Below, in pieces: positions 9,411 to 12,812 of a stretch of 64,000 nt of DNA (its first letter is position 1; every line of letters begins with the position of its first letter). The translations under genes and the position numbers were made by a program. The stretch is taken from the sequence record LC739534.1. One strand, given 5' to 3'. The notes below the pieces were generated by a model. The model made no database searches and had not been told where the DNA came from. It saw only the letters and a list, made by a program, of their open reading frames with translations. The DNA is from Escherichia phage phiWec181.

Positions 9411-9703
9411 TGTATAAAATTACAATCGTAGAATCTGTGGGTGAGATTCGTAAAGAAATTATTCTGGAGACGGAAGATCTGGAACTGGTACGTGAAATCA
9501 TAATTGGTAAGAATGTAGACAAGGTGGAGTCGGACGCACCCAACCTGATGATCGATGACCAATATGCAGAATTTCGTCGTATTTTTGAGGAAGAAAGGAA
9601 GAAGTGGGGCAAAGAACCAAACGTTTTTCGTCCTTATAATCCGTATCCTTCTGGTGATCCGTGGATCATGACTAACAGAAACCCGTTTGAAATAACCTGT
9701 TGA
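9410..9703 (+). CDS. hypothetical protein (97 aa)
   Basis: ORF overlapping previous stop (TAATG). Confidence 0.45.
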   Translation: MYKITIVESVGEIRKEIILETEDLELVREIIIGKNVDKVESDAPNLMIDDQYAEFRRIFEEERKKWGKEPNVFRPYNPYPSGDPWIMTNRNPFEITC

Positions 9704-9711
9704 GGTGGCCT

Positions 9712-10290
9712 ATGAGCAACCTATTTTACACAGGCGTGGGAAGTCGAGAGATAACCCACGAAGAATGGGATTTAATGGTCGCTGTAGCAAAGTGGTTGGC
9801 TAACTGTGGTTTTACTTTACGTTCAGGTAATGCAAACGGTAGTGACTCTGCTTTCGAAACAGGTGTGGAAGAATCCAAAAACAAATCTCTCAAGGAGATT
9901 TATATCCCTTGGGAGAAGTTTGAAGGCAATGATATTCCAGGTGAGAAAATAGTTCTTGCTAAACCTGACAGTATGAACTATGCTATCAGTCTCCAGTGGA
10001 TAAAGGATATTCATCCGGCATTTGATAAATTGAAACAAGGTGCACGTAAATTGCATCAACGTAACGTTCATCAGGTGTTGGGACAAGATCTGGAGCATCC
10101 AATTCCTTCTTTGTTTTTACTGGCTTGTTCCAAAGAAGATAAGAAGGGAGACGTTATGGGTGGAACACGGACGGCGTGGCTCATCGCTAAAGCTAATAAC
10201 GTTCCATGTTTTAACTTACGTGGTAAAACAAAGGAAGAACTTTATGCTTTTCTTAAACCGTTGGTCAAGGGGGCAATCAGTGGCAATTAA
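9712..10290 (+). CDS. SLOG/DprA-like Rossmann-fold protein (putative nucleotide-binding)
   Basis: GVGSREIT...LRSGNANGSDSAFETG resembles the DprA/Smf GxR...SGxAxGxDxAAH core; assignment tentative. Confidence 0.4.
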   Translation: MSNLFYTGVGSREITHEEWDLMVAVAKWLANCGFTLRSGNANGSDSAFETGVEESKNKSLKEIYIPWEKFEGNDIPGEKIVLAKPDSMNYAISLQWIKDIHPAFDKLKQGARKLHQRNVHQVLGQDLEHPIPSLFLLACSKEDKKGDVMGGTRTAWLIAKANNVPCFNLRGKTKEELYAFLKPLVKGAISGN

Positions 10291-10804
10291 GTTAAATCGT
10301 GCAAACGTAGGTAATCGTTTTAACCTTAGCCGTATAAACGAGGACGTAGATGTTACAGCAGATATTGAAAAAATCATGCAGGGTATTGTCCATCACGGTT
10401 TGCGTTTTGCCAGGGATTTGGTAATCTTCCGTTATGACGGAGAAGATGATCGTTCAAAGAATGATGGGATTATCTTCGTAGATAAAGATTTAACCCAAGC
10501 AGATATTGAACAGATCAACCGTTATTTTATTGGTGTAGGGGATCTTCAAGACACGCAGCTTGCACGTATGGCAGAAATTCTGGCGAATAAATTGTTGCAA
10601 GATATCGGAAAAGTTCTTGACAAAAATCCAAAACATGTTATAGTGACTATCCACAAAATGAGTTTTATTAAGTATCTTAACAAACCTGGTAAACTGGGTT
10701 ATGGATGGATACGCACAAGTGGACCACAAACCACTCTCGAAACCGAGATGTGCTATACAATTGAAGAAGTAAAACGTGAGGAGGAAGAGAATGGCGGAAT
10801 TTAA
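10280..10804 (+). CDS. hypothetical protein (~174 aa), GTG start
   Basis: In frame with ORF-track 10040..10804; GTG at 10280 preceded by AAGGGGG and placed just before the upstream stop; longer version would overlap upstream gene. Confidence 0.4.
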   Translation: MAIKLNRANVGNRFNLSRINEDVDVTADIEKIMQGIVHHGLRFARDLVIFRYDGEDDRSKNDGIIFVDKDLTQADIEQINRYFIGVGDLQDTQLARMAEILANKLLQDIGKVLDKNPKHVIVTIHKMSFIKYLNKPGKLGYGWIRTSGPQTTLETEMCYTIEEVKREEEENGGI

Positions 10805-11081
10805 TGAAGTGAAAAGTTACGAAAGCAATTTCGTAAGCAATTGGGAAGCATGGGATGAGATGGGTGTTGGTGAACTCTATTTCTACAATGTAACCCTTCG
10901 TCCAGAATATCAACATCTCATTCCAGAAGGCACTGTGCAGATCGGTATGTTCATGTCTTCTCAAGACGGTGTTGTGCAGTTTGAGTTTTACTCTGACACA
11001 GAACAGAACGAATTCACTTATCGTGCATTCAATATCGTATTAGCTTTAGGAGAGGAGAAATTTTATGACGACGAAGTATAA
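10791..11081 (+). CDS. hypothetical protein (96 aa)
   Basis: SD GAGGAGGAAGAGA upstream of ATG 10791. Confidence 0.45.
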   Translation: MAEFNEVKSYESNFVSNWEAWDEMGVGELYFYNVTLRPEYQHLIPEGTVQIGMFMSSQDGVVQFEFYSDTEQNEFTYRAFNIVLALGEEKFYDDEV

Positions 11082-11262
11082 AACAGTAGCAGAAGCACTG
11101 AAAGCAGCACACGAAGCCATTGCAGAAGCTGAACAATTGGCTGATGAAACTGGCACAAGTTTTCACTTCTCTGTTGAATATGGGATGGGTGGTACTTATG
11201 ACCCAGAAGATGAGAACGAATACACTGGGACCAACTGGCACCCATCTTCCCTCGGTTGTTAA
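11065..11262 (+). CDS. small protein, paralog family G (N-terminal helix, C-terminal Cys)
   Basis: SD GGAGAGGAG upstream; shares architecture with the next two ORFs. Confidence 0.45.
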   Translation: MTTKYKTVAEALKAAHEAIAEAEQLADETGTSFHFSVEYGMGGTYDPEDENEYTGTNWHPSSLGC

Positions 11263-11276
11263 TAAGGAGAAATAAA

Positions 11277-11495
11277 ATGAGTGATCGTAATGCACAAGCA
11301 TTAGCAGACAAAGCAAAAGAAATCATGAAGCTTGTGGATGCACTGGCAGCAGAAGCAGAAAAGGAAGGTTTCGGTCTTAGCTTAGAAAACAATACAATCT
11401 GTTTTGAAGATTGGCAGTCTTCTGCTTGCTATGGCGAAGCTGATGATGGTTTCACCGTTGACTCTGACGGTGTTTGGTATAGCAGTAATTGTTAA
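11277..11495 (+). CDS. small protein, paralog family G
   Basis: SD AAGGAGA upstream of ATG 11277; Ala/Glu-rich N-terminus, ends ...WYSSNC. Confidence 0.45.
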   Translation: MSDRNAQALADKAKEIMKLVDALAAEAEKEGFGLSLENNTICFEDWQSSACYGEADDGFTVDSDGVWYSSNC

Positions 11496-11504
11496 GGAGG
11501 GATC

Positions 11505-11774
11505 ATGTCAGAAGGTAGTGCCTTAATCAAGGCAAAAGTTAAAGAGATGGAAGAATCACAACAGAAGTTCCGCAACGAGATTGAAGAGCTTTGTGAGCAG
11601 TTCCAAGAACAAGCGTGGATCGGTGATTACGGGAATGGGGAAACTTACTACCCAACAGGAACAAACGCAGAAGAACATTATCTCACCTATATCTGCGGAG
11701 ACTATGATATTGAGATTGACGAAAACGGTCTGATGACCGAAGGTCTTTGGGTGTCTTCCTCGGAAATGTGCTAA
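11505..11774 (+). CDS. small protein, paralog family G
   Basis: SD AAGGAGGG upstream; ends ...WVSSSEMC like its neighbours. Confidence 0.45.
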   Translation: MSEGSALIKAKVKEMEESQQKFRNEIEELCEQFQEQAWIGDYGNGETYYPTGTNAEEHYLTYICGDYDIEIDENGLMTEGLWVSSSEMC

Positions 11775-11782
11775 TAAATAAT

Positions 11783-11808
11783 AACCCGCTTCGGCGGGTT
11801 TTTTATTG
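11783..11808 (+). terminator. rho-independent terminator
   Basis: AACCCGC-TTCG-GCGGGTT hairpin followed by TTTTTATT. Confidence 0.65.
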
Positions 11809-11816
11809 TGTGAGTG

Positions 11817-11845
11817 TTGACAAGACACGAAGAACCTGGTAGACT
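11817..11845 (+). promoter_or_regulatory. sigma70-type promoter
   Basis: TTGACA, 17-nt spacer, TAGACT upstream of CDS 11874. Confidence 0.4.
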
Positions 11846-11873
11846 TGTCTCATCAACTAAGAGAGGAGGATAT

Positions 11874-12812
11874 ATGAAAGTATTAATCGGTAGTCGTGCG
11901 TTGGAAATGATTTGTCGTTCTCGTGGTGTAGAACTGTATCGTGCTTGCGTAGATCTGGATTACCTCTGCACTGAAGAAGAGTGGCAAGCAGAAGCCCAGA
12001 AATTCTCGAAAGATCGTTTCGTAGAAATTGTTGAACGTAAAGGTAACAAAGGGCATATCAAAATGATCGCGGGCGCTCATCTGGAATATGATATTGCACA
12101 ACCAGGCGACTCTACAGATGCTTTGATTCAATACATCAAAGAGAATGCAGATCATCTGCCGCGTATTGGTTATGATGTGGTCGCGCCTTTGGATGTTTTA
12201 TACCTTCTGAAGATGAGTCACCGTTTTAAGAAGGACAGTCCTCACTTCCTGAAAACAATGAAGGATATCCACTTCATGCGTAACCTTGGAGCGAAGATCC
12301 CTGAAGAGTTGGAAGATACATACAAACTGCGTCAGAAGGAGTCCTATAATTACGGGCACCCTAATCTGAACGTGAAAAGTAAAGATTTCTTCAAGGGTGA
12401 TGAAGTGCCTTATGTGTATGATCACGATAGCCTGCACAGAGTTTTAGCTGTAATGGAGGAACCAGCTTACACGAACTACCTAAAGGATGGTAACGAGGTA
12501 ATGACAAGTAAAGATAAGTTCTATGCTGTTGACGAAACTACCAGATTGCTTGGGGTGTTAGAGGAGAGTTTGGTTCTGGCTTCGGAAAGGTGTCTAATAC
12601 CTTTCAACTACAGTGTTACAGGGAAGAAGGCATTTCTTATGGCTTTGACTAAAGTTTGCACTTCTATCACATCGGGCTACTTTCGAGAATATGCTTATGA
12701 AAAGTTCTTCCTTGTGTGTAAGGTATACGATAATATGTATCCTAACGACGAGTGGGTGGATACGTTAAGACAAGCCATAGATAAGGGGGCTGTTGATGTA
12801 TATAAAGCATAA
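11874..12812 (+). CDS. hypothetical protein (312 aa), possible minimal nucleotidyltransferase fold
   Basis: SD GAGAGGAGG upstream; N-terminal LIGSRAL...VDLDYL loosely resembles the GS...DxD NTase motif (weak). Confidence 0.5.
   Translation: MKVLIGSRALEMICRSRGVELYRACVDLDYLCTEEEWQAEAQKFSKDRFVEIVERKGNKGHIKMIAGAHLEYDIAQPGDSTDALIQYIKENADHLPRIGYDVVAPLDVLYLLKMSHRFKKDSPHFLKTMKDIHFMRNLGAKIPEELEDTYKLRQKESYNYGHPNLNVKSKDFFKGDEVPYVYDHDSLHRVLAVMEEPAYTNYLKDGNEVMTSKDKFYAVDETTRLLGVLEESLVLASERCLIPFNYSVTGKKAFLMALTKVCTSITSGYFREYAYEKFFLVCKVYDNMYPNDEWVDTLRQAIDKGAVDVYKA

Follow-up and report, generated by a model that had tools for sequence, protein, structure and literature searches.

Three adjacent small genes in a 64,000-nt stretch of DNA from Escherichia phage phiWec181 (record LC739534.1), the whole of which we refer to as the window, form one half of a conserved two-gene module. 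The other half is a gene for an enzyme that combines the Pfam domains DUF7277 and DUF7275 and that occurs among phages in a long and a short form, of which only the long form accompanies the small genes. The products of the trio belong to a family of acidic proteins whose bodies differ between subtypes, the sole segment conserved across all subtypes being a C-terminal tail that ends in Cys.

A shared C-terminal tail in a family of small phage proteins

The trio comprises open reading frames (ORFs) of 65, 72 and 89 amino acids (aa), which a preliminary description of the window had singled out as adjacent and Cys-ended. This was confirmed, and the three ORFs coincide with coding sequences annotated as 'hypothetical protein' in phage phiWec179. 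Their positions, isoelectric points (pI) and tails, together with the gene for the partner enzyme, are as follows.

11065–11262, + strand: ORF1, 65 aa, pI 4.4, 'YGMGG' subtype
11236–11259, + strand: ORF1 C-terminal tail WHPSSLGC, of the 8-residue class W-x-x-S-S-x-x-C
11277–11495, + strand: ORF2, 72 aa from ATG, pI 4.05, 'double-motif' subtype
11412–11429, + strand: ORF2 internal motif copy W46-Q-S-S-A-C51, followed by Y-G-E and kept in orthologues
11475–11492, + strand: ORF2 C-terminal tail WYSSNC, of the 6-residue class W-x-S-S-x-C
11505–11774, + strand: ORF3, 89 aa, pI 4.05, 'GDYGxGxTYYP' subtype
11748–11771, + strand: ORF3 C-terminal tail WVSSSEMC
11874–12812, + strand: partner enzyme gene, long form, 312 aa, Pfam DUF7277 and DUF7275

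ORF2 was taken from the ATG at 11277, the mechanical ORF list having begun this frame at TTG 11256. A GGAG Shine–Dalgarno site precedes each of the three genes, and those of ORF2 and ORF3 directly adjoin the stop codon of the gene before. Comparison with the nearest relative (locus L005) gave ratios of nonsynonymous to synonymous substitution (dN/dS) of 0 for ORF1 (no nonsynonymous change), 0.20 for ORF2 and 0.17 for ORF3, and values of 0.10–0.19 were obtained for ORF1 against more distant relatives. By these codon comparisons, the trio are real protein-coding genes under purifying selection.

The kinship of the three proteins that had been suspected was upheld by profile alignment and not by pairwise alignment: pairwise BLASTP among ORF1, ORF2 and ORF3 was not significant (E = 0.016, >100 and 4.6), and all three match the phrog_899 profile (E = 6.7e-14, 2.6e-4 and 5e-13, respectively) at positions 148–221 of its 221. 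Because one profile matches all three, they are anciently diverged paralogues rather than products of recent tandem duplication; no DNA-level repeat was found among the three genes. On the strength of these profile matches the trio are members of PHROG 899, a family without functional annotation. None of the literature searched mentions DUF7275, DUF7277, PHROG 899 or 2141, or the ORF names of RB69 and 44RR, and neither the invariant tail nor its link to a DUF7277–DUF7275 enzyme is described there, for PHROG 899 or otherwise.

When 1.84 billion representative proteins were searched with a profile built from the three subtypes (E ≤ 1e-3), a family of at least 315 clusters at 50% identity was recovered, the cluster names all being 'hypothetical protein'. 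Among the 150 best matches listed, lengths range from 65 to 200 aa and in nearly all the alignment reaches the last residue. One further match, P0023 (1,920 aa), was rejected as a false positive due to immunoglobulin/cadherin repeats. ORF3 alone has relatives in 440 phage records, many T4-like Straboviridae among them, and the family as a whole extends over hundreds of genes in T4-like Straboviridae, Stephanstirmvirinae, Pseudomonas and Stenotrophomonas myoviruses and jumbo phages; as far as this distribution tells, the family is essentially phage-only. Other searches with the small proteins gave little: no Pfam, NCBIfam or PADLOC model matches the trio, word-indexed homologue searches returned close relatives only, and the PDB yielded only designed helices of a generic kind and AcrIIC4, a weak helical match that we rejected as compositional.

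The family is acidic (median pI 4.4 over 376 unique members), and its bodies, which reach 150–200 aa, are conserved as distinct subtypes, those represented by ORF1 ('YGMGG'), ORF2 ('double-motif') and ORF3 ('GDYGxGxTYYP') recurring in distant phages. ORF1 illustrates the general layout with, from N- to C-terminus, a helix, an F-x-F strand, the sequence Y-G-M-G-G-T-Y, an acidic linker and the tail W-H-P-S-S-L-G-C. The double-motif subtype carries an additional internal copy, D-W-x-S-S-x-C-Y-G-E, which is kept in Aeromonas phage 44RR2.8t, in VR26, in RB69-like phages and in several metagenomic phages; orthologues from T4-like phages of Aeromonas and E. coli have retained both copies.

The terminal Cys, to which the preliminary description had drawn attention, proved to be part of a longer signature. 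The pattern W..S.{1,3}C forms the exact C-terminal end of 162 of 168 family proteins, and a further three have one residue beyond the Cys. Four rule-breakers were seen (P0060, P0061, P0075 and P0119), three with one extra residue (…SCN, …GCS and …SCS) and one ending …SQSCWWWW. Two spacing classes account for nearly all of the 376 unique members, G-W-x-(S 59%, P 21%, A 14%)-S-S(93%)-x-x-C for 306 and W-x-S-S-x-C for 68, and in 202 of them the tail Cys is the only Cys in the protein. When all ORFs of the window of at least 60 aa were taken stop-to-stop, 14 of 376 ended in Cys and only the trio ended in W..S.{1,3}C, an ending also borne by none of 6,229 ORFs in a control set of unrelated phage loci. 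This indicated that the sharing of the tail is not a matter of chance.

Prediction of the ORF3 structure with AlphaFold2 from an 18-sequence alignment gave an overall predicted local distance difference test (pLDDT) score of 55, the only credible element being an N-terminal helix at residues 3–36 (pLDDT 72–80), in line with the helical N-terminus proposed from the sequence. The tail (residues 78–89) scored below 50 and was modelled as unstructured, as would be expected of a substrate or docking tail.

Linkage of the tail proteins to a long-form DUF7277–DUF7275 gene

The arrangement in the window, in which small Cys-tailed ORFs precede the enzyme gene, is repeated in RB69-like phages, VR26 and 44RR2.8t, where two to five such ORFs are followed by an enzyme homologue of 300–321 aa. 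We therefore examined the association in both directions. In 80 viral loci fetched with the enzyme, six-frame ORFs were scanned for the motif W..S.{0,3}C and for the same motif reversed; the tail motif was present in 202 of 14,430 ORFs and the reversed motif in six. Tail ORFs number one to six per locus, with one to five upstream copies, and nearly all lie directly upstream on the strand of the enzyme gene, the gap from the last small ORF to the enzyme gene being below 50 nt in 27 of 63 loci. After inspection of the exceptions (one with variant spacing, four with a copy farther off and one locus without upstream sequence), approximately 76 of 79 informative long-form loci carry at least one small protein. 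Conversely, in loci fetched with an alignment of the YGMGG type, the enzyme gene lies just downstream in every case (32/32; enzyme match at E ≤ 1e-95). The neighbourhood of the enzyme is otherwise not conserved, the next most frequent gene family being present in 16 of the 80 loci.

Short-form enzymes served as a control, and their 33 loci (the 6,229 control ORFs already mentioned) contained no tail ORF and no match to the family hidden Markov model; four annotated phages with a short-form enzyme likewise lack tail ORFs. Thus, the genomic data establish, at the level of gene content, that the tail proteins are functionally coupled to the long-form enzyme and specifically to the part of it that has no counterpart in short forms.

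Among 185,579 cellular species genomes the enzyme was found on seven contigs only, all of them from metagenome bins and most with small ORFs, which indicates that the module is essentially phage-only. These contigs (L117–L123) are labelled Saccharibacteria, Bacteriovoracales, Flavobacteriaceae or Thermosynechococcus and look like misbinned phage contigs.

Some loci depart from the usual arrangement. In L011–L014 the long-form enzyme is not preceded by any small ORF, and a single acidic ORF of 65 aa (…YWDDSGC) is found about 5 kb downstream on the opposite strand (approximately 10050–10780, minus), indicating that the two halves of the module can be separated. In 11 of the 80 loci (e.g. L016, 1538–1771), a gene for a glutaredoxin-like protein of about 78 aa with a CGSC motif lies some 2.2 kb upstream of the enzyme, and 44RR2.8t has nrdH and nrdC.2 in the vicinity. 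A connection of the glutaredoxin-like gene with the Cys tail through redox chemistry is conceivable, with plain gene order as an alternative.

The partner enzyme

DUF7277 spans residues 3–87 of the 312-aa enzyme (Pfam E = 9.3e-9) and DUF7275 residues 108–291 (E = 1.3e-67). Residues invariant in long and short forms are G6, S7, A9, D27, D29, K113, H116, K127, H184, D185, H188, E230, E231, E238 and R239, and those conserved in long forms only are E71 (86% conserved among long forms), R117, R136, R153, Y160, H162, C262, S267, R271 and E272. The short form, of about 250–270 aa, is carried by actinophages of Streptomyces and Gordonia, KVP40-like Vibrio phages and other phages; it keeps the G-S...D-x-D motif and DUF7275, and lacks profile positions ~32–93, corresponding to about 60 residues of DUF7277. 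C262, within KVCTSITSG, is present in 97% of long forms, whereas short forms without exception have Ile or Val at this position. The covariation of C262 with the tail Cys (97% versus 0%) was kept as a weak lead only, there being exceptions in both directions; in L012, L014 and L081, for example, C262 is kept without adjacent partners.

The motifs of the enzyme suggest that it may be a nucleotidyltransferase. At the motif level, G6-S7...D27-x-D29 resembles the G-S/D-x-D signature of Pol-beta-type nucleotidyltransferases, and the pattern H...HD is reminiscent of HD hydrolases. Several GenBank submitters have labelled homologues of the enzyme 'nucleotidyltransferase', and faint Pfam matches to NTP_transf_5 and DUF6036 were each seen in one of 52 enzyme members (E = 0.02–0.09). 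The enzyme has no significant match to the Pfam HD or NTP_transf models, PDB sequence and profile searches found nothing, and hhalign gave no significant alignment of its profile with E. coli Cca, GlnD or GlnE, the best Cca alignment overlaying both head motifs at a probability of 0.6%. AlphaFold2 run without an alignment gave an unusable model of the enzyme (pLDDT 37).

Transcription signals and genomic setting

The signals between the trio and the enzyme gene are the following.

11783–11800, with T-run to 11806, + strand: intrinsic terminator AACCCGC-TTCG-GCGGGTT, 7-bp stem with five G-C pairs
11817–11845, + strand: sigma-70-like promoter match ahead of the enzyme gene (TTGACA, 17 nt, TAGACT, with TG), a consensus match only

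The hairpin corresponds to the strong terminator that had been reported after the trio and, judged from its stem and T-run, ends the transcription unit containing these genes. The best sigma-70-like promoter match of the region (TTGACA, 16 nt, TATAGT, with TG; 11 of 12 positions) lies at 10617–10644, within coding sequence two genes 5' of ORF1, and is a candidate promoter for the transcript terminated at 11783. Such promoter matches are all that suggests 'early' expression of the trio. No Rfam family was found in the window.

The window derives from an Escherichia Phapecoctavirus (Stephanstirmvirinae). Bases 10500–12500 match phages phiWec179 and phiWec186 at 100% identity, three further records (phiWec188, phiWec190 and PsgM04F) at about 97% and some 65 remaining records, mostly of the Phapecoctavirus type (e.g. 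Mt1B1_P17), at about 74–75%. Close relatives are filed as 'Pseudomonas phage PsgM04F' (96.7% identity), 'Campylobacter phage B15' and an Acinetobacter phage, host labels that look doubtful. Upstream of the trio, a gene at 9700–10290 matches phrog_768, a DprA-like DNA recombination-mediator protein (E = 2.9e-62); its match to Pfam DNA_processg_A is weak, and such a gene is unusual for the early region of a lytic phage.

Possible roles of the tail

The role that we place first, tentatively and as something short of probable, is that the enzyme covalently modifies the tails of the small proteins. On this proposal, divergent phage-only paralogues, all small, acidic and cytoplasmic and each built from an amphipathic N-terminal helix, a short beta segment, an acidic linker and the tail, would act together with the adjacent long-form enzyme, presumably through physical contact, and the shared tail would be the element that the enzyme recognizes. 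The tail is taken to be what the enzyme binds because it is the sole common element, is nearly always C-terminal and is predicted to be flexible. It would enter the active site and be modified there, most plausibly by receiving a nucleotidyl or phosphoryl-linked group on the conserved Ser, and the thiol of the terminal Cys and the carboxylate would assist binding or reaction. A pocket for the tail could be lined by the long-form-specific residues R117, R136, R153, Y160, H162, C262, S267 and R271. Once modified, the paralogues would be directed by their differing bodies to different roles in early infection.

Several observations weigh against this proposal. Conservation of the internal motif in ORF2-type proteins implies that a free C-terminus is not always needed, and suggests that the tail motif can function away from the C-terminus. 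Gene linkage would be explained equally well by a regulator or adaptor role and by a substrate role. In the window, the trio and the enzyme gene have a terminator and a promoter-like site between them and are therefore not co-transcribed in this phage. The long-form enzymes of L066 and L074 lack C262 though small proteins are encoded nearby. Finally, the nucleotidyltransferase assignment comes from motifs only, with no support from PDB searches, hhalign or AlphaFold2, and the retention of G-S...D-x-D without the full domain in short forms places a classical nucleotidyltransferase fold in doubt.

A non-covalent role of the tail is the strongest alternative, although we consider it unlikely. The tail may be a docking or plugging element for the enzyme, its Cys thiolate and carboxylate perhaps binding a metal site in the His/Asp-rich domain, and the small proteins may switch the enzyme on or off, or their bodies may bring different host targets to a single enzyme. 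The pairing of one enzyme gene with one to six divergent paralogues that share the tail alone would be consistent with such a role, as would the Arg, His and Cys residues specific to long forms and the predominance of single-Cys members. Moreover, subtypes such as the double-motif proteins of ORF2 type are kept across distant phage groups, which indicates that the bodies have distinct functions. However, the near-absolute conservation of Ser-Ser and Cys suggests chemistry over simple docking, and the two enzymes without C262 that still have partners are difficult to accommodate here also.

We give rather less weight to an extension of the modification proposal, in which the enzyme would chemically transform the W-x-x-S-S-x-x-Cys tail as part of a phage protein-tagging or cofactor-building system. 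The routes could include Ser nucleotidylation followed by elimination or cyclization onto the Cys, a Trp-Cys cross-link, or activation of the tail for conjugation. If this were so, T4-like, phAPEC8-like and jumbo phages would use modified small proteins, or conjugates of these with host targets, to reprogramme the host at an early stage of infection.

It is more doubtful still that the small proteins are independent effectors of host takeover or anti-defence (e.g. acidic decoys) whose tail binds a host protein, adjacency to the enzyme then being due to a common pathway or to inherited gene order and not to a direct partnership. Their marked acidity (median pI 4.4), their setting of small genes and sigma-70-like promoter matches, the separate transcription units of trio and enzyme in the window, and a paralogue number that varies between phages, as in arms-race genes, would all fit this explanation. 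Inherited gene order alone nevertheless fails to explain a linkage kept in Straboviridae, Stephanstirmvirinae, jumbo phages and others while all other neighbours change, and the complete absence of tail proteins beside short-form enzymes is left unexplained. PADLOC, which lists defence and not anti-defence proteins, has no match for the trio or the enzyme.

The several short genes per locus, the fixed spacing of Ser and Cys in a C-terminal segment and the adjacent enzyme also resemble clusters for ribosomally synthesized and post-translationally modified peptides (RiPPs) with a C-terminal Cys core, such as AviCys-forming lanthipeptides and linaridins. The helix would then be a leader and W-x-x-S-S-x-x-C a core that the enzyme converts to a cross-linked peptide or small molecule, for example by addition of the Cys thiol to a Ser-derived dehydroalanine or through a Trp-Cys link. 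We regard this as improbable: no gene for a protease, exporter or other transporter, known dehydratase, cyclase, radical S-adenosylmethionine enzyme, or flavin (LanD-type) decarboxylase is conserved near the phage module, the enzyme matches no known RiPP maturase family, and the bodies, long and conserved as subtypes of up to 150–200 aa in the early regions of lytic phages, are unlike disposable leaders.

Least likely of all are the roles first suggested for the terminal Cys, namely lipidation, disulfide-linked oligomerization and metal binding by the protein itself: near-invariance of the Cys would fit them, but the N-termini are charged helices with no hydrophobic segment, signal peptide or lipobox, the Cys is C-terminal, we know of no C-terminal prenylation system in bacteria, the bacterial cytoplasm is reducing, and the conserved Trp, the Ser-Ser pair and the enzyme linkage would be left unexplained. 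Members with a single Cys (202 of 376) can form neither an intramolecular disulfide nor a Cys-based site of their own, and differ from zinc-ribbon or Cys-rich proteins with three or four Cys/His ligands; self-contained versions of these ideas are thereby excluded for most of the family. A Cys donated to a metal site of the partner, a metal shared between chains and an intermolecular disulfide are compatible with the sequences and are possible.

Comparison with known systems

The following comparisons are functional analogies. GlnD, a nucleotidyltransferase and HD enzyme, reversibly uridylylates the small signalling protein PII. The phage enzyme is similar in having an N-terminal G-S...D-x-D-type motif with a His/Asp-rich helical domain, as are its small partners in having an exposed conserved element. 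However, no homology to E. coli GlnD could be detected with hhalign (probability 0.1%), the phage small proteins are without a Pfam match, and the candidate site is the Ser/Cys tail rather than a T-loop Tyr.

Holo-acyl carrier protein synthases of the MdcG/CitX type (EC 2.7.7.x) load a small acidic carrier with a prosthetic group, which becomes linked to a Ser of the carrier by a phosphodiester. The phage module recalls this arrangement in that its small proteins are acidic and helical, have a conserved Ser and are encoded beside a putative transferase gene, but no synthase gene for a coenzyme A precursor is conserved near the phage trio and the phage Ser is set in a tail with Trp and a terminal Cys.

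In MNT-HEPN systems (MntA-HepT), a minimal nucleotidyltransferase nucleotidylates its protein partner. The pairing of a G-S/D-x-D motif with a helical domain is shared; the phage module differs in having no R-x4-6-H HEPN motif (none is conserved in the enzyme) and no PADLOC or Pfam match to such systems, and its partners are one to six small acidic proteins and not a toxin. Ubiquitin-like proteins and sulfur carriers of the ThiS-MoaD type end in Gly-Gly, whereas the trio tails end in x-x-Cys, and the neighbouring enzyme gene has no ThiF/MoeB-type Pfam match.

Significance

Here we have brought anonymous small early ORFs of large lytic phages together into one family with a sharp C-terminal signature and a single conserved enzyme partner. 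This provides a testable two-component system, both component families of which are uncharacterized and whose function we infer, and suggests that many large phages possess a system of enzyme and partner that has not been described before. Should the tail prove to be modified by the enzyme, the module would represent a new post-translational chemistry of phages and possibly a new peptide tag. Alternatively, if the small proteins are adaptors or inhibitors, they would illustrate how a phage can direct or control one of its enzymes.

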